From IMG/VR virus record IMGVR_UViG_2671180828_000006: DNA of 20,762 nucleotides; one strand, given 5' to 3'. The notes under the pieces are model-generated. The model saw only the letters and a program-made list of their open reading frames with translations, was not told the DNA's origin and did no database searches. Within the stretch, counting starts at the first letter, position 1. Each line of letters begins with the position of its first letter. Position numbers and translations under genes: made by a program. The stretch comes from a virus (lineage: Duplodnaviria > Heunggongvirae > Uroviricota > Caudoviricetes). This document shows, in pieces, positions 411-20,674 of the stretch.

Positions 411-2672
411 ATGATCAAGTTATCTGAAAAAGGCGTGTTTCTCGCCAGTAATAACGAAATAATTGCCGAAGAACATTTCACCGGCGAAATTAAAAAAGAA
501 GAAGCCAAAAAAGGCACTATTGCCTGGTCTATTCTCTCTTCGCATAATACGTCCGGAAATATGGATAAACTTAAAATTAAGTTTGATTCATTAGCCTCTC
601 ACGATATTACCTTTGTTGGTATTGTACAGACCGCTAAAGCGTCCGGTATGGAACGTTTCCCGCTGCCGTATGTGCTGACCAACTGCCATAACTCACTCTG
701 CGCCGTCGGCGGCACTATTAACGGTGATGACCATGTTTTTGGTTTATCGGCGGCCCAGCGTTATGGCGGTATTTTTGTGCCTCCGCATATTGCGGTCATC
801 CATCAATATATGCGTGAGATGATGGCAGGCGGCGGCAAAATGATCCTCGGGTCAGACAGCCACACCCGTTACGGTGCATTAGGGACAATGGCAGTCGGTG
901 AGGGCGGCGGTGAGTTGGTAAAACAGCTGCTTAATGACACCTGGGATATCGACTATCCGGGCGTGGTTGCGGTGCATCTGACCGGAAAACCTGCGCCGTA
1001 TGTGGGGCCACAGGATGTGGCGCTGGCTATCATTGGCGCGGTGTTCAAAAACGGTTACGTCAAAAACAAAGTCATGGAGTTCGTTGGACCGGGCGTTAGC
1101 GCGCTCTCTACCGATTTCCGTAACAGCGTTGACGTGATGACCACTGAAACGACCTGTTTAAGTTCTGTCTGGCAAACCGATGAAGAAGTCCATAACTGGC
1201 TGGCGCTGCACGGTCGCGGCCAGGATTACTGCCAGCTTAACCCTCAACCGATGGCGTACTACGATGGCTGCATCAGCGTTGATTTAAGCGCCATCAAACC
1301 AATGATTGCGCTGCCGTTCCACCCGAGCAACGTGTATGAAATCGACACACTGAACCAGAACCTGACCGACATTCTGCGTGAGATTGAAATTGAGTCCGAA
1401 CGCGTGGCGCACGGTAAAGCCAAACTCTCGCTGCTGGATAAAGTGGAAAATGGTCGCCTGAAAGTGCAGCAGGGGATTATCGCGGGCTGTTCTGGCGGTA
1501 ACTACGAAAACGTCATCGCGGCGGCGAATGCACTGCGCGGTCAATCCTGTGGCAATGACACCTTCTCGCTGGCAGTTTACCCGTCATCACAGCCGGTGTT
1601 TATGGATCTCGCCAAAAAAGGTGTGGTAGCAGATTTGATTGGCGCAGGCGCAATCATCAGAACCGCGTTCTGCGGCCCATGCTTTGGCGCGGGCGATACG
1701 CCAATCAACAACGGTTTGAGTATTCGCCACACCACGCGTAACTTCCCGAACCGCGAAGGCTCTAAGCCAGCTAATGGGCAGATGTCAGCGGTGGCGTTGA
1801 TGGACGCTCGTTCTATCGCTGCGACTGCGGCAAACGGTGGCTATTTAACCTCTGCCAGCGAACTTGATTGCTGGGACAACGTGCCGGAGTACGCCTTCGA
1901 TGTAACGCCGTATAAAAACCGTGTTTATCAGGGCTTTGTGAAAGGGGCAACTCAGCAACCGCTGATTTACGGGCCGAACATTAAAGACTGGCCGGAATTG
2001 GGTGCGCTGACTGACAATATCGTCCTGAAAGTGTGCTCGAAGATCCTCGACGAAGTGACCACCACCGACGAACTGATTCCTTCCGGTGAAACCTCTTCTT
2101 ATCGTTCAAATCCGATTGGTCTGGCGGAGTTTACCCTGTCTCGCCGCGATCCCGGTTATGTTAGCAGAAGTAAAGCGACTGCTGAGCTGGAAAATCAGCG
2201 TCTGGCGGGGAATGTCAGCGAGCTGACAGAGGTGTTTGCGCGCATTAAGCAGATTGCTGGTCAGGAGCATATTGATCCGCTGCAAACTGAAATTGGCAGC
2301 ATGGTCTATGCGGTGAAACCAGGCGATGGTTCTGCGCGTGAACAGGCGGCGAGCTGCCAGCGTGTGATTGTCGGTCTGGCGAATATTGCCGAGGAGTACG
2401 CGACTAAACGCTATCGTTCTAACGTCATCAACTGGGGGATGTTACCGCTGCAAATGGCGGAAGTACCAACCTTTGAAGTGGGGGATTACATTTACATCCC
2501 TGGCATTAAAGCGGCGCTGGATAATCCGGGTACGACGTTTAAAGGTTATGTGATCCATGAAGATGCGCCGGTAACGGAAATTACGCTCTATATGGAAAGT
2601 CTGACTGCTGAAGAGCGCGAGATTATCAAGGCGGGTAGTTTGATTAACTTCAATAAAAACCGTCAGATGTAA
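411..2672 (+). CDS. ybhJ: Aconitase-family protein YbhJ (753 aa from the ATG at 411; the track ORF begins at an upstream GTG at 387)
   Basis: Track ORF 387..2672; GGAG Shine-Dalgarno about 7 nt before the ATG at 411 (MIKLSEKG...); aconitase-like sequence; chromosomal context next to ybhC and the lambda attachment site. Confidence 0.85.
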
Positions 2673-2679
2673 AAAGCGC

Positions 2680-2895
<216 letters not shown>

Positions 2896-2905
2896 TTAAT
2901 TGCTC

Positions 2906-4189
2906 TTACTTCTTCGCCTCTGCAACCACTTTACTACCCACGCCGCGGTTATTGTATTCCCACATGCGGTTGTAGTTAGTGTCATTCAGATTGCGCTGTA
3001 TTTCGTCGTTATCATCTACGCTGCCGGTATTACCCGCAAACGGACGATTAGAGATCACCGCATCGGCCCACGGTTTAGCCGTGTTAAAACCTTCGTTGAT
3101 GGCGCTATCACGGATCACCACCTGACCGTTGGTATTGGCATCAACATCCAGCGAGCGGCCCAGTTGCGCCACACCATCACCGAAAGCATTGAAACGGCTG
3201 TTTACGGCGAGGAAACCGTAGTAAATGTTGGACAGCGTAGCCGGTGCAAACACATACGCTTCTTGCTGAGTACGTGAGTTCACCACGCGGAATTCGGTGT
3301 TATCGAACACCACTGCGCCGCGACCAGAAACGATATCCACATCCCCTTCAATGTAGCTGTTGGTCACCAGCGTACGCGGCTGACGATTTGTTTCCAGACG
3401 GTTCTGCACACCGCTGTTGGTGACAAAGAAGGTGTTCTGACGACCGAGAATGTTAACGTTGTTAATCTGTACCTGGTCACCATCAGTACGCAGTGCCACC
3501 GCCGGATGGTTACCTGCATCTACGCTATCGCCCAGCGTGTTTTCGATGGTCAGATTTTGCAGTTGCAGGCCATTGTTTTGTGACCAGAAGACCGCAGAGC
3601 AGAGAACACCGATACTGTCGCTGCGTTTGCTCTGGCAGCTATCGTACATATACCACGCTGGTTTACCTGGCATATATTTGCCGCGCGGGTTGACGTCGTG
3701 ACGCCAGTCGGCAGGGCTCATGCCACCATCAAGGGAAAGCCCAATCTTCACATCAATCGGTTTTTCACCTGTACCGTACAGAGTAATTCCACCCGGAGCG
3801 GCAGGGACATATACCGTTCCCTGATACTCACCAGGCATCACGGCAATATACTGGCGCTTGTTGGTACGCTTGATAATTGCCGCATCTACCGCCGCCTGAA
3901 TCGTGGTATGCGTTACACCTTGAGTGCCCGCCGGGCCGACAACAAAGTCAGGTTGCGCAGGCAGGGTAATCGGGGAAGGATTCCACGCTGCAGCACCTGG
4001 TGTCAGGGATGCAAAATAGTGTTGAGCATCGAAATTCTGCGCTTCTTTTGCCGACAGAATCGGGCGAGAAGAGGTACCAGGCGCGGTTTGATCAGAAGGA
4101 CGTTGATCGGGCGGGGTTGAGCTACAGGCGGTCAGCGTCACGCCAAAAGCCAATGCCAGCGCCAGACGGGAAACTGAAAATGTGTTCAC
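2906..4189 (-). CDS. ybhC: Pectinesterase-family outer-membrane lipoprotein YbhC
   Basis: 427-aa ORF with signal peptide and lipobox (LTAC); pectin-esterase-like sequence; known neighbour of the lambda attachment site. Confidence 0.85.
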   Translation of the reverse strand: MNTFSVSRLALALAFGVTLTACSSTPPDQRPSDQTAPGTSSRPILSAKEAQNFDAQHYFASLTPGAAAWNPSPITLPAQPDFVVGPAGTQGVTHTTIQAAVDAAIIKRTNKRQYIAVMPGEYQGTVYVPAAPGGITLYGTGEKPIDVKIGLSLDGGMSPADWRHDVNPRGKYMPGKPAWYMYDSCQSKRSDSIGVLCSAVFWSQNNGLQLQNLTIENTLGDSVDAGNHPAVALRTDGDQVQINNVNILGRQNTFFVTNSGVQNRLETNRQPRTLVTNSYIEGDVDIVSGRGAVVFDNTEFRVVNSRTQQEAYVFAPATLSNIYYGFLAVNSRFNAFGDGVAQLGRSLDVDANTNGQVVIRDSAINEGFNTAKPWADAVISNRPFAGNTGSVDDNDEIQRNLNDTNYNRMWEYNNRGVGSKVVAEAKK

Positions 4190-4230
4190 AGGTTGCTCCG
4201 GGCTATGAAATAGAAAAATGAATCCGTTGA

Positions 4231-4330
4231 AGCCTGCTTTTTTATACTAAGTTGGCATTATAAAAAAGCATTGCTTATCAATTTGTTGCAACGAACAGGT
4301 CACTATCAGTCAAAATAAAATCATTATTTG
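4231..4330. other. Prophage attL: bacterial attB left half, 15-bp core GCTTTTTTATACTAA (~4236-4250), phage attP P' arm
   Basis: Sequence '...tgaagcctgcttttttatactaa|gttggcattataaaaaagcattgcttatcaatttgttgcaacgaacaggtcactatcagtcaaaataaaatcattatttgatttcaa' matches the lambda core and P' arm from recall; int follows immediately. Confidence 0.85.
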
Positions 4331-5394
4331 ATTTCAATTTTGTCCCACTCCCTGCCTCTGTCATCACGATACTGTGATGCCATGGTGTCCGACTTATGCC
4401 CGAGAAGATGTTGAGCAAACTTATCGCTTATCTGCTTCTCATAGAGTCTTGCAGACAAACTGCGCAACTCGTGAAAGGTAGGCGGATCCCCTTCGAAGGA
4501 AAGACCTGATGCTTTTCGTGCGCGCATAAAATACCTTGATACTGTGCCGGATGAAAGCGGTTCACGACGAGTAGATGCAATTATGGTTTCTCCGCCAAGA
4601 ATCTCTTTGCATTTATCAAGTGTTTCCTTCATTGATATCCCGAGAGCATCAACATGCAATGTTGTTGGGATGGCAATTTTTACGCCTGTTTTGCTTTGCT
4701 CGACATAAAGATATCCATCTACGATATCAGACCACTTCATTTCGCATAAATCACCAACTCGTTGCCCGGTAACAACAGCCAGTTCCATTGCAAGTCTGAG
4801 CCAACATGGTGATGATTCTGCTGCTTGATAAATTTTCAGGTATTCGTCAGCCGTAAGTCTTGATCTCCTTACCTCTGATTTTGCTGCGCGAGTGGCAGCG
4901 ACAGGGTTTGTTGTTATATGGCCTTCAGCTATTGCCTCTCGGAATGCATCGCTCAGTGTTGATCTGATTAACTTGGCTGACGCCGCCTTGCCCTCGTCTA
5001 TGTATCCATTGAGCATTGCCGCAATTTCTTTTGTGGTGATGTCTTCAAGTGGAGCATCAGGCAGACCCCTCCTTATTGCTTTAATTTTGCTCATGTAATT
5101 TATGAGTGTCTTCTGCTTGATTCCTCTGCTGGCCAGGATTTTTTCGTAGCGATCAAGCCATGAATGTAACGTAACGGAATTATCACTGTTGATTCTCGCT
5201 GTCAGAGGCTTGTGTTTGTGTCCTGAAAATAACTCAATGTTGGCCTGTATGGCTTCAGTGATTGCGATTCGCCTGTCTCTGCCTAATCCAAACTCTTTAC
5301 CCGTCCTTGGGTCCCTGTAGCAGTAATATCCATTGTTTCTTATATAAAGGTTAGGGGGTAAATCCCGGCGCTCATGACTTCGCCTTCTTCCCAT
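4324..5394 (-). CDS. int: Lambda-type integrase (tyrosine recombinase), 356 aa
   Basis: MGRRRSHERRDLPPNLYIRNNGYYCYRDPRTGKEFGLGRDRR... matches lambda Int from recall; adjacent to attL. Confidence 0.95.
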   Translation of the reverse strand: MGRRRSHERRDLPPNLYIRNNGYYCYRDPRTGKEFGLGRDRRIAITEAIQANIELFSGHKHKPLTARINSDNSVTLHSWLDRYEKILASRGIKQKTLINYMSKIKAIRRGLPDAPLEDITTKEIAAMLNGYIDEGKAASAKLIRSTLSDAFREAIAEGHITTNPVAATRAAKSEVRRSRLTADEYLKIYQAAESSPCWLRLAMELAVVTGQRVGDLCEMKWSDIVDGYLYVEQSKTGVKIAIPTTLHVDALGISMKETLDKCKEILGGETIIASTRREPLSSGTVSRYFMRARKASGLSFEGDPPTFHELRSLSARLYEKQISDKFAQHLLGHKSDTMASQYRDDRGREWDKIEIK

Positions 5395-5590
5395 TTCTGA
5401 TCCTCTTCAAAAGGCTACCTGTTACTGGTCGATTTAAGTCAACCTTTACCGCTGATTCGTGGAACAGATACTCTCTTCCATCCTTAACCGGAGGAGGGAA
5501 TATCCTGCACTCGCGTACCCATCGACGAACTGTTTCAAGGCTTCTTGGGCGTCGCTGGCGTGCGTTCCACTCCTGAAGTGTCAAGTACAT
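5372..5590 (-). CDS. xis: Excisionase Xis, 72 aa, overlapping the start of int
   Basis: MYLTLQEWNARQRRPRSLETVRRWVRECRIFPPPVKDGREYLFHESAVKVDLNRPV... matches lambda Xis from recall. Confidence 0.95.
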   Translation of the reverse strand: MYLTLQEWNARQRRPRSLETVRRWVRECRIFPPPVKDGREYLFHESAVKVDLNRPVTGSLLKRIRNGKKAKS

Positions 5591-5615
5591 CGCAAAGTCT
5601 CCGCAATTACACGCA

Positions 5616-5640
5616 AGAAAAAACCGCCATCAGGCGGCTT
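5616..5640 (-). terminator. Intrinsic-terminator-like hairpin (CCGCC/GGCGG stem then U6 on the minus-strand RNA); the orf55-like stop codon lies in the loop
   Basis: + strand 'agaaaaaaccgccatcaggcggctt'; on the minus strand this is a GC stem followed by TTTTTT. Confidence 0.5.
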
Positions 5641-5797
5641 GGTGTTCTTTCAGTTCTTCAATTCGAATATTGGTTACGTCTGCATGTGCTATCTGCGCCC
5701 ACAGCATCCAGTGGTCATAGCAGTCGCTGATGTTCTCGGCTTCGATAACTCTGTTGAATGGTTCTCCATTCCATTCACCTGTGACTCGGAAGTGCAT
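5630..5797 (-). CDS. Small conserved lambdoid ORF (55 aa) upstream of xis, lambda orf55-like
   Basis: Hand translation: MHFRVTGEWNGEPFNRVIEAENISDCYDHWMLWAQIAHADVTNIRIEELKEHQAA; GGAG Shine-Dalgarno before the ATG; under 60 aa so not in the track. Confidence 0.5.
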   Translation of the reverse strand: MHFRVTGEWNGEPFNRVIEAENISDCYDHWMLWAQIAHADVTNIRIEELKEHQAA

Positions 5798-6039
5798 TTA
5801 TCATCTCCATAAAACAAAACCCGCCGTAGCGAGTTCAGATAAAAGAAATCCTCGTCAGTGCGAGGATGCTGTTCATTGCTGCTATACACTTTTTTGCTCT
5901 CAACGTAAGCGGTAGCCCATTCTGTTGGGTTGGTGCAGTTGCTTTTAGGAAATGCTATTTACCCCTTAAATGTCGGCTGAAAGAGCTAAAATCCATGCAA
6001 AAAATTTACGCAATTTTGTGTATTATTGTGCAGTAAGTA

Positions 6040-6642
6040 ATGAGCTATTTTCTGCGCAAAAAATGGATGGTAAATTTGTCCGGGTCAGGAAAAATTTTAT
6101 GGGCGCTAAACATGAAAAAAGATTCGTATCCTTATTTGATTTGCATGACAGTTTCAGGGCTGATCTTTATTTTCCTTTTCTTCTGGTGGCGGGCAGATAT
6201 CTACAGGGTCACGTTTCTTAATCAGAGTATATCCCACTATTACATTCTGTTTAGCATGGGAATAGCTTTTCTGTTATCTCTGTTTTGGGTTAAGAAGGGG
6301 ATAGTAAAACAAAGAGGCTGGAAGAGTCTGTCAGCATACCTTAAGGTTTATGCAGGGATGTGCATATTTGCTGGATTTTTTCTGATTATACCCCTTACGA
6401 CACTAACTTATTTTTTGCCTGGAGAGACATCGTCTTATGTTGCACCGTATCGGTATACTTCCGGTAGTTCAAAAAGTTGTTCTGGAGCTGAGGTGGATGA
6501 CCCCGATCTACATGAGAATATTCGCATTTGCTATCCGTATGGCAATTATGAGTACGATAATATTATCTATGTTGAAAAGAAAATTAATATATTAGGTGCG
6601 GTAGTGACATATGCACAGACCGCGCGTGATGATACTGAATGA
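6040..6642 (+). CDS. AT-rich accessory gene: predicted three-helix membrane protein with a ~80-aa C-terminal domain; start uncertain (ATG at 6040, 6067 or 6112)
   Basis: 200-aa track ORF; hydrophobic segments LICMTVSGLIFIFLFFWW, YYILFSMGIAFLLSLFWV, VYAGMCIFAGFFLIIPLTTLTYFL; opposite strand to the surrounding leftward operon; visibly AT-rich. Confidence 0.5.
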   Translation: MSYFLRKKWMVNLSGSGKILWALNMKKDSYPYLICMTVSGLIFIFLFFWWRADIYRVTFLNQSISHYYILFSMGIAFLLSLFWVKKGIVKQRGWKSLSAYLKVYAGMCIFAGFFLIIPLTTLTYFLPGETSSYVAPYRYTSGSSKSCSGAEVDDPDLHENIRICYPYGNYEYDNIIYVEKKINILGAVVTYAQTARDDTE

Positions 6643-6677
6643 TATAGTATATAGCGGGAAAGTTTTAGTTAATTTAT

Positions 6678-6711
6678 CGAGGTAATATAATTTACCTCGA
6701 CTCGTTTGTTC
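6678..6711 (+). terminator. Possible terminator hairpin downstream of the membrane-protein gene (cgaggtaa/ttacctcg stem)
   Basis: Inverted repeat 'cgaggtaatataatttacctcg' followed by a U-containing tract; weak U-run. Confidence 0.3.
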
Positions 6712-6852
6712 TGGTATTAATATTTCGCTTTACGACCGATTTTTATCTGATGATATCATGCGGTTTTCATATACTGACTTACTGTCTTTTCTCCGTTAGC
6801 GATTTTCTCCTGCTCAGCGATGATTTTATCTTTGGCTTCTAGTTAATTTCGC

Positions 6853-7074
6853 TCACTTCGAACCTCTCTGTTTACTGATAAGCTCCAGATCCTCCTGGCA
6901 ACTTGCACAAGTCCGACAACCCTGAACGACCAGGCGTCTTCGTTCATCTATCGGATCGCCACACTCACAACAATGAGTGGCAGATATAGCCTGGTGGTTC
7001 AGGCGGCGCATTTTTATTGCTGTGTTGCGCTGTAATTCTTCAATTTCTGATGCTGAATCAATGATGTCTGCCAT
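6853..7074 (-). CDS. TraR/DksA-family C4 zinc-finger protein, 73 aa (lambda Orf73-like)
   Basis: CxxC-(17)-CxxC motif (CCECGDPIDERRRLVVQGCRTCASC); size and position match the lambda TraR homologue from recall. Confidence 0.7.
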   Translation of the reverse strand: MADIIDSASEIEELQRNTAIKMRRLNHQAISATHCCECGDPIDERRRLVVQGCRTCASCQEDLELISKQRGSK

Positions 7075-7124
7075 CTTCCATTAATCCCTGAATTGTTGGT
7101 TAATACGCTTGAGGGTGAATGCGA

Positions 7125-7150
7125 ATAATAAAAAAGGAGCCTGTAGCTCC
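7125..7150 (-). terminator. Intrinsic-terminator-like hairpin on the minus strand between the orf61-like and TraR-like genes (tL-type)
   Basis: + strand 'aataataaaaaaggagcctgtagctcc': GGAGC/GCTCC stem, and on the minus-strand RNA it is followed by U6. Confidence 0.45.
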
Positions 7151-7172
7151 CTGATGATTTTGCTTTTCATGT

Positions 7173-7388
7173 TCATCGTTCCTTAAAGACGCCGTTTAAC
7201 ATGCCGATTGCCAGGCTTAAATGAGTCGGTGTGAATCCCATCAGCGTTACCGTTTCGCGGTGCTTCTTCAGTACGCTACGGCAAATGTCATCGACGTTTT
7301 TATCCGGAAACTGCTGTCTGGCTTTTTTGATTTCAGAATTAGCCTGACGGGCAATGCTGCGAAGGGCGTTTTCCTGCTGAGGTGTCAT
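7173..7388 (-). CDS. Small lambdoid early-left protein (71 aa from the internal ATG; lambda orf61-like)
   Basis: MTPQQENALRSIARQANSEIKKARQQFPDKNVDDICRSVLKKHRETVTLMGFTPTHLSLAIGMLNGVFKER; in the pL operon upstream of exo. Confidence 0.55.
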   Translation of the reverse strand: MTPQQENALRSIARQANSEIKKARQQFPDKNVDDICRSVLKKHRETVTLMGFTPTHLSLAIGMLNGVFKER

Positions 7389-7464
7389 TGAACAAGTCCC
7401 ATGTCGGCAAGCATAAGCACACAGAATATGAAGCCCGCTGCCAGAAAAATGCATTCCGTGGTTG

Positions 7465-7656
7465 TCATACCTGGTCTCTCTCATCTGCTTCTGCTTTCGC
7501 CACCATCATTTCCAGCTTTTGTGAAAGGGATGCGGCTAACGTATGAAATTCTTCGTCTGTTTCTACTGGTATTGGCACAAACCTGACTCCAATTTGAGCG
7601 AGGCTATGTGCCATCTCGATACTCGTTCTTAACTCAACGGGAGATGCTTTGTGCAT
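7465..7656 (-). CDS. Small lambdoid early-left protein, 63 aa (lambda orf63-like)
   Basis: Track [66 protein letters not shown]; size and position match lambda orf63. Confidence 0.6.
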   Translation of the reverse strand: MHKASPVELRTSIEMAHSLAQIGVRFVPIPVETDEEFHTLAASLSQKLEMMVAKAEADERDQV

Positions 7657-7817
7657 ACAGCTCCCCGTTTATTATTTATCTCCTCAGCCAGCCGCTGTGC
7701 TTTCAGGGGATTTCGGATAACAGAAAGGCCGGGAAATACCCAGCCTCGCTTCGTAACGGAGTAGACGAAAGTGATCGTGCCTACGCGGATATTATCGTGA
7801 GGATGTTTCATCGCCAT
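7629..7817 (-). CDS. Small lambdoid early-left protein, 60-62 aa (lambda orf60a-like), immediately upstream of exo
   Basis: Track [65 protein letters not shown]. Confidence 0.55.
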
Positions 7818-8488
7818 TGCTCCCCAAATACAAAACCAATTTCAGCCAGTGCCTCGTCCATTTTTTCGATGAACTCCGGCACCATCTCGTCAAAACTCGC
7901 TATATACTTTTCATTCCGCTCAATCACGACATAATGCAGGCCTTCACGCTTCATACGCGGGTCATAGTTGGCAAAGTACCAGGCATCTTTTCGCGTCACC
8001 CACATGCTGTACTGCACCTGGGCCATGTAAGCCGACTTTATGGCCTCGAAACCACCGAGCCGGAATTTCATGAAATCCCGGGAGGTAAACGGGCATTTCA
8101 GCTCAAGGCCATTGCCGTCACTGCATAAACCATCGGGAGAGCAGGCGGTGCGCATACTTTCGTCGCGATAGATGATCGGGGATTCAATAACATTTACGCC
8201 GGAAGTGAACTCAAACAGGGTTCTGGCGTCGTTCTCGTACTGTTTTCCCCAGGCCAGCGCTTTAGCGTTAACTTCCGGAGCCACACCGGTGCAAACCTCA
8301 GCCAGCAGGGTGTGGAAGTAGGACATTTTCATGTCAGGCCACTTCTTTCCTGATCGGGGCTTTGCTATCACGTTGTGAACTTCTGAAGCGGTGATGACGC
8401 CGAGCCGTAATTTGTGCCATGCATCATCCCCCTGTTCGACAGCTCTCACGTCGATCCCGGTACGCTGCAGGATAATGTCCGGTGTCAT
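7808..8488 (-). CDS. exo: Lambda exonuclease (Red-alpha), 226 aa
   Basis: [65 protein letters not shown]... near-identical to lambda Exo from recall. Confidence 0.95.
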
Positions 8489-9270
8489 GCTGCCACCTTC
8501 TGCTCAGTGGCTTTCTGTTTCAGGAATCCAAGAGCTTTCACTGCTTCGGCCTGTGTCAGTTCTGACGATGCGCGAATGTCGCGGCGAAATATCTGGGAAC
8601 AGAGCGGCAATAAGTCGTCATCCCATGTTTTATCCAGGGCGATCAGCAGAGTGTTAATCTCCTGCATGGTTTCATCGTTAACCGGAGTGATGTCGCGTTC
8701 CGGCTGACGTTCTGCAGTGTATGCAGTATTTTCGACAATGCGCTCGGCTTCATCCTTGTCATAGATACCAGCAAATCCGAAGGCCAGACGGGCACACTGA
8801 ATCATGGCTTTATGCCGTAACATCCGTTTGGGATGCGACTGCCACGGTCCGGTGATTTCTCTGCCTTCGCGGGTTTTGAATGGTTCGCGGCGGCATTCAT
8901 CCATCCACTCGGTAACGCAGATCGGATGATTGCGGTCTTTGCGGTAAATCCGGCATGTGCAGGATTCGTTGTCCTGTTCAAAGTCCATGCCGTCAAACTG
9001 CTGGTTTTCGTTGATGATGCGGGACCAGCCATCAACGCCCACCACCGGAACGATGCCGTTCTGCTTATCAGGGAAGGCGTAAATTTCTTTCGTCCACGGA
9101 TTAAGACCGTACTGGTTGGCGACGATCAGCAATGCGATGAACTGCGCATCGCTGGCATCACCTTTAAATGCCGTCTGGCGAAGAGTGGTGATCAGTTCCT
9201 GTGGGTCGACAGAATCCATGCCGACTCGTTCAGCCAGCTTCCCAGCCAGCGTTGCGAGTGCTGTACTCAT
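8485..9270 (-). CDS. bet: Recombination protein Bet (Red-beta), 261 aa
   Basis: [66 protein letters not shown]... matches lambda Bet. Confidence 0.95.
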
Positions 9271-10941: not shown

Positions 10942-11496
10942 TTGATGAGTATAGAAATGGATCCACTCGTTATTCTCGGACGAGTGTTCAGTAATGAACC
11001 TCTGGAGAGAACCATGTATATGATCGTTATCTGGGTTGGACTTCTGCTTTTAAGCCCAGATAACTGGCCTGAATATGTTAATGAGAGAATCGGTATTCCT
11101 CATGTGTGGCATGTTTTCGTCTTTGCTCTTGCATTTTCGCTAGCAATTAATGTGCATCGATTATCAGCTATTGCCAGCGCCAGATATAAGCGATTTAAGC
11201 TAAGAAAACGCATTAAGATGCAAAACGATAAAGTGCGATCGGTAATTCAAAACCTTACAGAAGAGCAATCTATGGTTTTGTGCGCAGCCCTTAATGAAGG
11301 CAGGAAGTATGTGGTTACATCAAAACAATTCCCATACATTAGTGAGTTGATTGAGCTTGGTGTGTTGAACAAAACTTTTTCCCGATGGAACGGGAAGCAT
11401 ATATTATTCCCTATTGAGGATATTTACTGGACTGAATTAGTTGCCAGCTATGATCCATATAATATTGAGATAAAGCCAAGGCCAATATCTAAGTAA
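10942..11496 (+). CDS. sieB: Superinfection exclusion protein B (SieB); start may be the internal ATG (MYMIVIW...)
   Basis: ...MYMIVIWVGLLLLSPDNWPEYVNERIGIPHVWHVFVFALAFSLAINVHRLSAIASARYKRFKLRKR... matches lambda SieB; on the + strand inside the leftward operon as in lambda. Confidence 0.85.
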   Translation: MMSIEMDPLVILGRVFSNEPLERTMYMIVIWVGLLLLSPDNWPEYVNERIGIPHVWHVFVFALAFSLAINVHRLSAIASARYKRFKLRKRIKMQNDKVRSVIQNLTEEQSMVLCAALNEGRKYVVTSKQFPYISELIELGVLNKTFSRWNGKHILFPIEDIYWTELVASYDPYNIEIKPRPISK

Positions 11497-12269: not shown

Positions 12270-13307
12270 TTAACACCCTTTAATGGGAGTTGAGATACGA
12301 GATATCATTGCTGATTCAATTATCCCACTTCTGACTTTATAGTCACCAAAAAGAGAAATTGAATCAGAAAGTTTCATGCTTTCATAAAGAAGGTCTGTTT
12401 CGTCTTTATCTATAAAATCAGTAACAACATAAGCAGGGAAGGTATAATCAGTGCCAACCTTTTTGCAAGTTACTGTCAGCTTTCCATCTGATTTTTTAAT
12501 GCCTTCAATTTCAACTTCTTCTGTAAGTTCTTTGTTGGAAAGTTTCTCACGTGGGTTTCTTATCATTTCGGCAATATCACGCTTATCTAATTCGATCTTT
12601 GCCATACCATTAAACTCTACTCTGTCAGCATCTGAGACGCCTTTCAACACCCCAACCACAGCATTTGAAGTATGGGATTGAATTCCCTCTGAAATCTCCC
12701 TCGCAGCTGCTGTGGCAGTATGAGCAGAAAGAACTTCAACCATGCCATCTTTAAGCAGTCTCATTTGCTCAGTTTGGCTGTTGGTGTCGTTGAGGCCTTC
12801 ATCAATCTCAAGTTGCTTCATTTTTTCTATATGGCGATCTTTTTGTCTCGACTTTATCAGCCAAGCCCCAGTAAGGATCAGCGATATGAGAACGAGACAT
12901 ATAGCTTTCTCTGTTCCAGTCATACCTTGTGTTGACCTCTCAAATGCAACACCAAATGAATCAATTACATCCTTTATAGCAACAAGTAGGTCAGTACAGC
13001 CAGGCTCAACTTTAAAAATTATCTCAAGCTCTTTTCTATCACTGTCTTTCAAATGCTTGAGATTATCCGTTCCTCGCCTTACAAGCATAAACGCTTTATA
13101 AAGTTCGGTCTGAAACTCGCACATACCTTGAGCTAAAGAGGACGGTATCGTCCCATTATACCGGTCTGGATCACCATAAATCTTGAAACTTACGTGGTTA
13201 ACAAAATCAATTTTAATGTCATTGATAGATATTTGCTGACCTTTCTGAACTCTTTCTAAAAACTCTGAAACGTCGCTTAATGATGAGATATCAATTTGAT
13301 TGTCCAT
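12270..13307 (-). CDS. Uncharacterised ~345-aa protein with one central predicted TM helix, occupying the rexA-rexB slot downstream of cI (track ORF extends to 13394 via an upstream alternative start overlapping cI)
   Basis: Track ORF 12270..13394; the ATG at 13307 (MDNQIDISSLSDV...) lies 22 nt after the cI stop with a GAGAAAAG Shine-Dalgarno-like tract; hydrophobic segment AICLVLISLILTGAWLI; visibly AT-rich; no resemblance to RexA/RexB as recalled. Confidence 0.6.
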   Translation of the reverse strand: MDNQIDISSLSDVSEFLERVQKGQQISINDIKIDFVNHVSFKIYGDPDRYNGTIPSSLAQGMCEFQTELYKAFMLVRRGTDNLKHLKDSDRKELEIIFKVEPGCTDLLVAIKDVIDSFGVAFERSTQGMTGTEKAICLVLISLILTGAWLIKSRQKDRHIEKMKQLEIDEGLNDTNSQTEQMRLLKDGMVEVLSAHTATAAAREISEGIQSHTSNAVVGVLKGVSDADRVEFNGMAKIELDKRDIAEMIRNPREKLSNKELTEEVEIEGIKKSDGKLTVTCKKVGTDYTFPAYVVTDFIDKDETDLLYESMKLSDSISLFGDYKVRSGIIESAMISRISTPIKGC

Positions 13308-13329
13308 ATCTTTTCTCAATGTTATTGTG

Positions 13330-14046
<717 letters not shown>

Positions 14047-19591: not shown

Positions 19592-20674
19592 TTAGAACTG
19601 GTAAACCATACCTACAGCAACGATATCATCGGTAGCAACGCCAGATGCTTTCGTGAAATCGCTCTTATCAATCAGGTTGATTTTGTAGTCAACAAAAGTG
19701 GACATATTTTTGTTGAAGTAATAGGTTGCACCTACATCAACATATTCAACCAGGTCCTGATCACCCCAAACACCCAAGTCTTTTCCTTTAGAATGCAGGT
19801 AAGCAACGGATGGACGCAGGCCGAAGTCGAACTGATATTGTGCAACAGCTTCGAAGTTTTGTGCTTTGTTGGCAATATGGTTATTACCAAAAACAGTCAT
19901 GTTCTGGGTTTCAGAATAGGTGGTGGCCAGATAGATGTTGTTCGCATCATATTTCAGACCAGCTGCCCATACTTCAGCATTTTGACCAGAAGCATTCAGA
20001 CCGTTGTTACCGTAGATAACCTGATTATTAGTGCGATCAGATTTAGCATAGGTTGCACCCACGCCGAATCCTTCATACTCATAAGTAGTTGAGAAACCGA
20101 AACCATCGCCATTAGCTTCAGTTACTTCATTTCGGTCATTTTTGCCCTGATACTGAGCTGCAAAGTTCAGGCCATCAACCAGACCAAAGAAGTCGTTGTT
20201 ACGATAAGTTGCAACACCTGTGGTGCGACCAGTCATGAACACATCTGTTTGGGTCCAGGTATCGCCACCGAATTCTGGCAGAACGTCAGTCCACGCACCG
20301 ATGTCGTATGCTACACCGTAGTTACGGCCGTAATCGATTGAGCCGTAGTCACCGAATTTCAGGCCTGCAAATGCAAGACGGGTTTTGTCTTTGGAGGAAC
20401 CTTGAGATTCAGCGCGGTTGCCTTTGAATTCATATTCCCACTGACCGAAACCAGTCAGTTGATCGTTGATTTGGGTTTCACCTTTGAAGCCAAGACGGGC
20501 ATAAGTAGTATCACCATCATCTGCATCATTAGAGGAGAAGTAGTGCTTAGCATTAACTTTCCCGTACAGATCCAGCTTGTTACTGTCTTTATTATAAATT
20601 TCAGCTGCCTGAGCAGACATCGCCATCAGTACTGATGCAGCTACAGCAGAAATTGCCACTGTTAATTTTTTCAT
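19592..20674 (-). CDS. nmpC: Prophage-encoded outer-membrane general porin (OmpC/PhoE superfamily; NmpC/Lc-type), 360 aa, intact
   Basis: Signal peptide [23 protein letters not shown]|AEIYNKD..., porin motifs and the C-terminal ...VAVGMVYQF; located between Q and the expected lysis genes, transcribed opposite to the late operon. Confidence 0.85.

Follow-up and report, generated by a model that had tools for sequence, protein, structure and literature searches.

A moron for a membrane protein, with a proposed role in exclusion, in a lambda-like prophage of Escherichia coli

P22 SieA, an inner-membrane protein of ~160 residues with three predicted transmembrane (TM) segments, is expressed from the prophage and blocks DNA injection (PMC10883804). 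SieA has its own promoter, as does SieB of lambda and P22, which is also expressed from the prophage, is encoded on the opposite strand within the leftward early operon, and acts by abortive infection rather than at entry. HK97 gp15 is another small membrane protein from a lambdoid moron (the HK97 record calls it a "moron product"), and Cumby et al. in 2012 reportedly found that it causes exclusion at DNA entry. We analyzed a 20,762-nucleotide stretch of viral DNA (IMG/VR record IMGVR_UViG_2671180828_000006), here called the window, in which a lambda-like prophage occupies the lambda attachment site of E. coli. An AT-rich cassette within it is very probably a moron-type accessory unit of the prophage, with one gene (positions 6112 to 6642, rightward) for a 176-residue inner-membrane protein, and phage 434 carries the same unit. 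We regard the locus as a prophage moron for a membrane protein, probably for exclusion. For the specific proposal that the protein is expressed from the prophage and excludes other phages at the cell envelope, our estimate is roughly 40%.

The 176-residue protein is like SieA in its size, its predicted inner-membrane location, and its three predicted TM segments. However, the conserved motif of SieA is predicted to be cytoplasmic, whereas the conserved part of the 176-residue protein is a predicted periplasmic beta-barrel with two cysteines, and the SieA C-terminal motif FxRYPxEAxxFNK is missing from the translated sequence. The cassette gene shares with sieB its placement on the opposite strand within the leftward early operon, but the two products show no homology (no PF14163 match for the 176-residue protein). 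HK97 gp15 differs in having 62 residues and no beta-barrel. The genes of 434, mEp332, and strain Sakai are the same gene in the same slot as in the window, and the sole difference is the annotated start. A cargo of P2-like prophages catalogued as "System #4" has the same architecture of three TM segments with CSGAxVDDP and ICYPxGxY motifs and is also a single-gene hotspot cargo, but its locus is P2-like and not lambdoid.

The cassette and its gene

An earlier annotation of the window, made from the letters without database searches (the sequence-only reading), had proposed a rightward AT-rich membrane-protein gene where lambda carries ea8.5 and ea22, and alignment with lambda bears this out. 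In blastn, lambda 27724 to 29355 aligns with window 4236 to 5867 at 98.6% identity, and lambda 30380 to 32100 aligns with window 6841 to 8560 at 97.6%. Because the alignment breaks at both junctions, the AT-rich 973 bp between them (5868 to 6840) stand in for ea8.5 and ea22 (lambda 29356 to 30379, 1,024 bp). The guanine-plus-cytosine (GC) content of the open reading frame (ORF) at 6040 to 6642 is 39.0%, compared to 46.7% for the window and 46 to 53% for the flanking phage genes. The slot lies between an orf55-like gene and a TraR-like gene in 434, mEp332, and Sakai prophage Sp3, as it does in the window. Both flanks are common to the lambda relatives, and the slot holds ea8.5/ea22 in lambda, HK630, DE3, O276, and 4W and the cassette in 434, mEp332, and 2B8, an alternation that the sequence-only reading had suggested looking for. 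As expected of a moron, a differently filled slot between conserved flanks is combined with a deviant GC content (39% versus 47 to 53%).

The cassette is not a new sequence. Phage 434 has it, and its gene was annotated there in 2022 as CPT_434_36, "putative membrane protein"; the 434 genome paper gives CPT_434_36 no function. Phage 434 is a founding model phage, yet the gene is annotated in it without a function. Over window positions 5900 to 6860, identity is 99.7% with mEp332, 98.6% with 2B8, and 98.5% with 434, and the same gene (98.5 to 99.7% nucleotide identity) is found as CPT_434_36 (UMO75300.1) in 434, as XSB40999.1 in mEp332, and as ECs_0804 in prophage Sp3 of O157:H7 strain Sakai. 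We found the cassette in 916 of 5,426 complete E. coli genomes (17%), always on the chromosome and at an identity of at least 95%; the carriers include O157:H7, O55:H7, and O104:H4 strains.

The ORF at 6040 to 6642 (plus strand) encodes 200 residues, and the sequence-only reading had taken this whole frame as the gene. The frame exists, but the start codon is probably ATG 6112 (176 residues) and not ATG 6040. Almost all homologues have 169 to 180 residues and begin at a methionine that corresponds to residue 25 of the 200-residue frame, which is ATG 6112 (MKK...), and a DNA alignment shows that Salmonella copies read ATG-TAG at the position matching ATG 6040. The coding sequence, stop codon included, would then be 6112 to 6642 on the plus strand, an assignment based on the conserved start, the family alignment, the ratio of nonsynonymous to synonymous substitution rates (dN/dS), and the AlphaFold model. 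The 24-codon in-frame extension upstream of it (6040 to 6111, plus strand) is missing from nearly all homologues, lies 5' of the transcript start predicted below, and is probably untranslated. The annotated start differs among copies of the gene and is TTG at window position 6076 in the 434 record and ATG 6040 in mEp332 and Sakai. We rejected both of these starts, since the homologue starts and the Salmonella ATG-TAG speak against them. The promoter-like footprint described below, which is conserved, is likewise located 3' of position 6040. A transcript start near 6083 would also exclude ATG 6040, ATG 6067, and TTG 6076.

The inconsistent annotation raises the question of whether the frame could be a chance ORF or a gene in decay within an AT-rich spacer. 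The 2B8 record splits the gene into two small ORFs, 434 has the TTG start, and many annotations of the E. coli P2-type allele give a truncated product of 112 residues. However, the 2B8 DNA itself holds an intact frame, as do 434, mEp332, Sakai Sp3 (ECs_0804), and 63 of 64 lambdoid loci among the IMG/VR viral contigs. The dN/dS values against two Salmonella copies are 0.09 and 0.17, the AlphaFold model is confident, and homologues as distant as 36% identity keep the conserved motifs. These conservation data indicate that the gene is real and under purifying selection; they effectively refute a spurious ORF, which we consider extremely improbable.

The predicted protein and the upstream footprint

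Three 19-residue hydrophobic stretches fall within residues 32 to 50, 66 to 84, and 104 to 126 of the 200-residue frame, with Kyte-Doolittle means of 1.5 to 2.1. An AlphaFold model built on a 24-sequence alignment has a predicted local distance difference test (pLDDT) score of 87 for the full protein and shows three long helices and a five-strand beta domain, in agreement with the three strongly hydrophobic helices of the sequence-only reading. Numbered on the 176-residue protein, and from AlphaFold and hydropathy together, helix 1 (TM1) spans residues 5 to 29 (6124 to 6198), helix 2 (TM2) spans residues 38 to 61 (6223 to 6294) after a conserved periplasmic loop, IYRVTFLN, and helix 3 (TM3) spans residues 70 to 101 (6319 to 6414) after a Lys/Arg-rich cytoplasmic loop, all on the plus strand. 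The helices are followed by a predicted periplasmic five-strand beta-barrel at residues 103 to 171 (6418 to 6624, plus strand), with the motifs CSGAxVxxP and ICYPxGxY and the cysteines Cys123 (6478 to 6480) and Cys140 (6529 to 6531). In the full-length model the beta domain covers residues 105 to 171. This C-terminal domain of ~70 residues includes YPYGNYEYDNIIYVEKKINILGAV and, modeled alone, has a pLDDT of 90. The domain of ~80 residues in the sequence-only reading is thus present, but it is predicted to be periplasmic rather than merely "soluble."

Family-wide net charges are +1.2 for the N terminus and +3.8 for loop 2, both assigned to the cytoplasm, and +0.2 for loop 1 and -1.8 for the C-terminal domain, both assigned to the periplasm. 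Since these charges obey the positive-inside rule across the family, the topology is predicted to be N terminus in and C terminus out. A three-pass inner-membrane protein with a conserved periplasmic C-terminal domain is therefore strongly supported by the modeling. The cytoplasmic parts amount to just ~8 and ~19 residues. Mean pairwise identity is 61% in the C-terminal periplasmic domain, compared to 33 to 48% in the TM helices. Both Cys123 and Cys140 are present in 23 of 24 sequences and sit on neighboring strands of the model, where they probably form a periplasmic disulfide. A short strand of loop 1 sits beside the barrel in the model, and we propose that the barrel would pack against this conserved first periplasmic loop.

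Conservation extends upstream of the gene. The ~95 bp 5' of ATG 6112 are conserved with P2-like prophage copies, and in alignment with Salmonella and Klebsiella copies the similarity ends no more than a few bases from the stop codon. Three blocks are conserved in this upstream stretch: ATTGTGC(A/G), which occurs one to three times with a 10-bp spacing; TTTTC; and TGnTAA(A)TTT, built like an extended -10 element. The latter two blocks lie at a fixed distance from the ATG in the lambdoid, Salmonella P2-like, and Citrobacter copies. This footprint outlines a putative promoter at 6048 to 6076 (plus strand) with a -35-like TTTTCT (6048 to 6053), a 14-nucleotide gap, TG (6068 to 6069), and a -10 element TAAATT (6071 to 6076), from which we infer a transcript start near 6083. 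The gene would accordingly have its own weak extended -10 promoter. Since the putative promoter faces against the early pL operon, which reads leftward, a repressed prophage could express the gene.

Upstream of the putative promoter is a degenerate direct repeat with a 10-bp period, TTGTGTATT-ATTGTGCAG (6016 to 6033, plus strand). Repeats of the ATTGTGCAG type lie ~55 to 75 bp 5' of the predicted transcript start and are kept in lambdoid and P2-like copies, with one exact and one degenerate copy in the window (6016 to 6033), two copies at locus L004 (5904 to 5922), and three at locus L005 (5894 to 5922). In Salmonella P2-like copies, ATTGTGC(A/G) is found at -86/-87 from the ATG, two to three times in tandem.

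The 434 record labels the repeat site (window 6016 to 6029) "CII binding site consensus," and this label is consistent with a role of the cassette in cis. Rightward, possibly CII-activated transcription would oppose pL and modulate the distal early-left genes, like the C1-activated antisense aI RNA of P22 next to xis. The cassette is antisense within the pL operon, and P22 has its C1-activated rightward antisense promoter at the same relative position. However, TTGY-N6-TTGY occurs in the window at chance frequency (5 seen versus 5.3 expected), the site itself is TTGT/TTGT and not TTGC, and P2-like phages keep this upstream element even though they lack CII. The chance motif count and the conservation in CII-less phages led us to reject a CII-activated promoter as an established feature. 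Strong purifying selection on the protein also implies that the coding function is primary, and we consider a cis role very improbable.

Downstream of the gene, a perfect 9-bp hairpin followed by a weak T tract (CTCGTTTGTT) lies at 6677 to 6700 (plus strand), where the sequence-only reading had noticed a flanking hairpin. The 81 nucleotides around it fold at -20.3 kcal/mol (z = -3.2), and the hairpin, a candidate terminator, may function as one. It is not common to the P2-like prophage copies.

Relatives and the proposed role

The protein has a very small family. A word-indexed search returned 74 clusters of homologues, and an exhaustive hidden Markov model search of 1.84 billion representative proteins returned 57 clusters at 50% identity, with members of ~165 to 190 residues or fragments. 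All organisms named by the genome and homologue searches are Enterobacterales. PHROG 1416 matches residues 113 to 200 of the 200-residue frame (E = 7e-51), which is the C-terminal part alone. The allele of the window is the one found in lambdoid prophages of E. coli and Shigella. Seven divergent homologues (50 to 78% identity) are solitary genes in the same orientation between the portal gene gpQ and the replication gene gpA of P2-like prophages. The P2-borne copies are from E. coli (78%), Salmonella (71% and 59%), E. hormaechei (57%), K. michiganensis (55%), and one metagenome (50%). In P2-like phages, the gpQ-gpA locus, where old and tin are found, is an experimentally supported hotspot of anti-phage genes, and Table S5B of the same study lists "System #4," with three TM segments, no Pfam match, and 470 occurrences (Rousset et al. 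2022, PMC9122126). We found that "System #4" belongs to the family described here (51% identity over 168 residues, E = 2e-56). The family is thus already catalogued as hotspot cargo, and the sequence in the window is already an annotated hypothetical gene of 434; the relatives rank fourth in frequency among the cargos of the P2 defense hotspot in E. coli. In a neighbor-joining tree, the lambdoid allele is nested in an AT-rich mobile clade with the P2-borne copies. It is strongly supported by these comparisons that the cassette is mobile, trades places with other cargo, and turns up repeatedly in the accessory hotspots of prophages.

Position alone strengthens the anti-phage idea, since homologues lie repeatedly in the P2 gpQ-gpA hotspot, and this makes the gene a candidate for such a function. 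P4-like satellites parasitize P2-like phages. Six of eight randomly chosen cargos of unknown function from the hotspots of P4-like satellites protected against phages (2026, PMC13586616). We propose that in a lysogen the protein would act at the periplasmic face of the inner membrane and stop other phages from establishing infection, a form of superinfection exclusion in which genome entry would be the blocked step. Its periplasmic domain would have a conserved envelope factor or inner-membrane entry factor of the host as its partner. Binding to a host factor is favored over binding to fast-evolving phage proteins because no other part of the protein is as well conserved as the periplasmic domain, even when phage-borne copies are compared with chromosomal ones. 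An entry block through such a factor is favored because the surface under constraint faces the periplasm, only tiny parts lie in the cytoplasm, and no partner gene travels along. In its effect the protein would then be like SieA or HK97 gp15.

The chromosomal copies point in another direction. They were found in Enterobacter, Klebsiella, Cedecea, Citrobacter, Pantoea, Erwinia, Serratia, Phytobacter, Kosakonia, and Pseudescherichia. In species-representative genomes, tblastn detected no lambda or P2 marker genes within 8 kb of these copies, and gene calls near the copies in Cedecea, Enterobacter mori, and Klebsiella are nonphage as well. Enterobacter copies adjoin the same GGDEF gene in six species, and the copies of E. 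mori and E. cloacae have a dN/dS of ~0.33. These observations bear on the main rival of exclusion, in which phages would have taken an envelope protein from the enterobacterial chromosome for lysogenic conversion or host physiology. Its periplasmic domain would act on a component of the host and benefit the lysogen directly, possibly through envelope homeostasis, stress tolerance, or immunity to a contact-dependent toxin or to a bacteriocin that acts in the periplasm. The members with host-like GC content and stable chromosomal positions (Enterobacter, Klebsiella, Phytobacter, and Kosakonia) fit this account, as do the dN/dS of E. mori versus E. cloacae, the conservation of the periplasmic domain across chromosomal and phage copies, the nondefense cargo of the hotspots, and the lack of a match in the defense database. 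However, the mobile AT-rich clade recurs, in two phage families, at loci rich in anti-phage genes, the chromosomal neighborhoods are heterogeneous, with no conserved operon partner that would indicate a pathway, and the protein has no sequence or fold similarity to a known immunity or envelope protein. We consider a host-physiology role possible but not likely; the present data do not separate it from an entry block.

A different kind of anti-phage action would be abortive infection or toxicity, with the protein depolarizing or permeabilizing the inner membrane upon sensing infection, in the manner of RexB or SieB, or acting as a toxin. Small multipass membrane proteins in defense hotspots fit this description, since the TM proteins of known systems are often suicide effectors (PMC9122126). 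The gene also has the same orientation as sieB in the window, and a YafO toxin gene adjoins a family member at one Salmonella locus. However, the gene travels alone, with no conserved sensor or partner in any context (at the ~40 loci examined, we found no conserved operon partner), and cytoplasmic parts of ~8 and ~19 residues offer little with which phage components inside the cell could be sensed. Constraint falls on the periplasmic part, and stable chromosomal copies speak against a hazardous toxin. We therefore consider an abortive or toxic effector improbable.

Several results weigh against exclusion at the envelope. The deeper branches of the family in the neighbor-joining tree are chromosomal genes with host-like GC content and conserved synteny (Enterobacter, Klebsiella, Phytobacter, and Kosakonia), which would fit a cellular envelope function that phages borrowed later. 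Homologues occur in just 3 isolated phages among 50,697 phage records. Partition systems and cytolethal distending toxin are examples of nondefense cargo in the P2 gpQ-gpA hotspot (PMC9122126), and "System #4" is not in the tested-systems table of Rousset et al. 2022. In the literature on 434, mEp332, ECs0804, heteroimmune exclusion, and lambdoid morons, we found no functional study of the protein. The 176-residue protein has no match in Pfam, NCBIfam, or PADLOC, and hhalign gave probabilities of 0.1% for SieA, 0.2% for SieB, and 0.7% for HK97 gp15. A consensus promoter scan gave no strong sigma-70 promoter upstream of the gene and missed the element at 6048 to 6076. The independently expressed cassette of the sequence-only reading is indirectly supported by the shared ~95-bp footprint, by the extended -10-like TGnTAAATT, and by homology that stops at the stop codon, but not by the consensus scan.

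In Pfam, the sole match was DUF6057 at E = 0.18, far short of the cutoff, and PADLOC-DB v2.0.0 returned no family at E values of 1 or below. Among solved structures compared by sequence, the best match had an E value of 0.32, and Foldseek against BFVD returned nothing at E values of 0.001 or below. NfeD-like proteins, which also combine TM helices with a C-terminal domain (an OB-fold), gave neither a profile match nor significant fold similarity. We also count small OB-like beta-barrels (DUF1093/YxeA, 3npp, and cold-shock domains) among the closest known systems; no fold match was significant. The remote homology search suggested by the sequence-only reading therefore uncovered a divergent family but no library or fold match to a known function.

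Should it exclude phages, the protein would represent a compact entry-level defense of 176 residues with a new architecture, and it could point to a host factor required by phages for passage through the inner membrane, which bears on the host range of therapeutic phages. If it has another envelope function, the family would clearly exemplify the repeated recruitment of a chromosomal gene into prophage accessory hotspots. As a single small gene with culturable carriers, 434 and mEp332, it is cheap to test. A more speculative proposal, which we think rather unlikely, is that the protein is the founding member of an unrecognized single-gene, envelope-acting anti-phage family common to lambda-like and P2-like prophages. 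In this proposal, the disulfide-bonded barrel would bind a host entry factor and block several phage types, and the Enterobacter and Klebsiella copies would be domesticated or ancestral.

Other genes in the window and at related loci

To the left of the cassette, the window contains the host gene ybhC (2906 to 4189), int (4324 to 5394), and xis (5372 to 5590). A 56-residue ORF (5866 to 6036, plus strand), which in 434 is CPT_434_35, "putative membrane protein," begins exactly at the lambda/cassette junction and has no match in NCBIfam or PADLOC. We considered it as a partner of the cassette gene and rejected it, since it straddles the junction and lies outside the part common to the P2-borne copies; it is probably not a gene. 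On the other side of the cassette gene, the spacer at 6643 to 6852 contains no ORF longer than 34 residues.

The window has its own SieB gene (10942 to 11496, plus strand; PF14163, E = 1e-29), with the same geometry as the cassette. A 374-residue ORF (12270 to 13394, minus strand) lies directly downstream of the lambda-type cI repressor gene (13330 to 14043) and overlaps its 3' end. This ORF occupies the rexA/rexB position of lambda, has no Pfam or PADLOC match, and may be a further prophage-expressed accessory or defense gene. Near the right end of the window, a 360-residue ORF (19592 to 20674, minus strand) has a signal peptide, resembles OmpC/NmpC by eye, and looks like a prophage-borne porin gene.

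The E. coli P2-like allele (the cluster of P0039, with P0127 and P0129) is represented by a 112-residue product from an internal GTG (VKQSGW...) on at least 1,000 contigs. This form consists of TM3 and the periplasmic domain. Contigs with the full 176-residue form are far fewer (68 for the listed member that occurs most often). The counts suggest a widespread N-terminally truncated or disrupted allele, whose product would remain a membrane-anchored periplasmic domain.

A 3.5-kb contig labeled as a Candidatus Nanosynbacter metagenome-assembled genome (L019, JARKOR010000073.1) carries the cassette, TraR, exo, and bet and is 99 to 100% identical to E. coli prophage. Judged by this identity, it is almost certainly an E. 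coli contamination of the metagenome bin.

Further ORFs lie near family members in other genera. In the Phytobacter and Kosakonia chromosomes (L027, L029, and L033), an ORF of ~1,235 residues that begins MPTSASQPRQIRLFLSSTFRDMENERHEL... is located 0.5 to 3 kb upstream and by eye is like the N terminus of DUF4062/STAND-type NTPases. In Pantoea and Erwinia, an ORF of ~434 residues with a helix-turn-helix-like N terminus lies upstream of the family member. In the K. michiganensis P2-like hotspot (L016 to L018), locus positions 2281 to 5623 encode a 790-residue protein with a weak AAA_16 match and a 279-residue protein with no Pfam match, and this pair may be a two-gene defense system.

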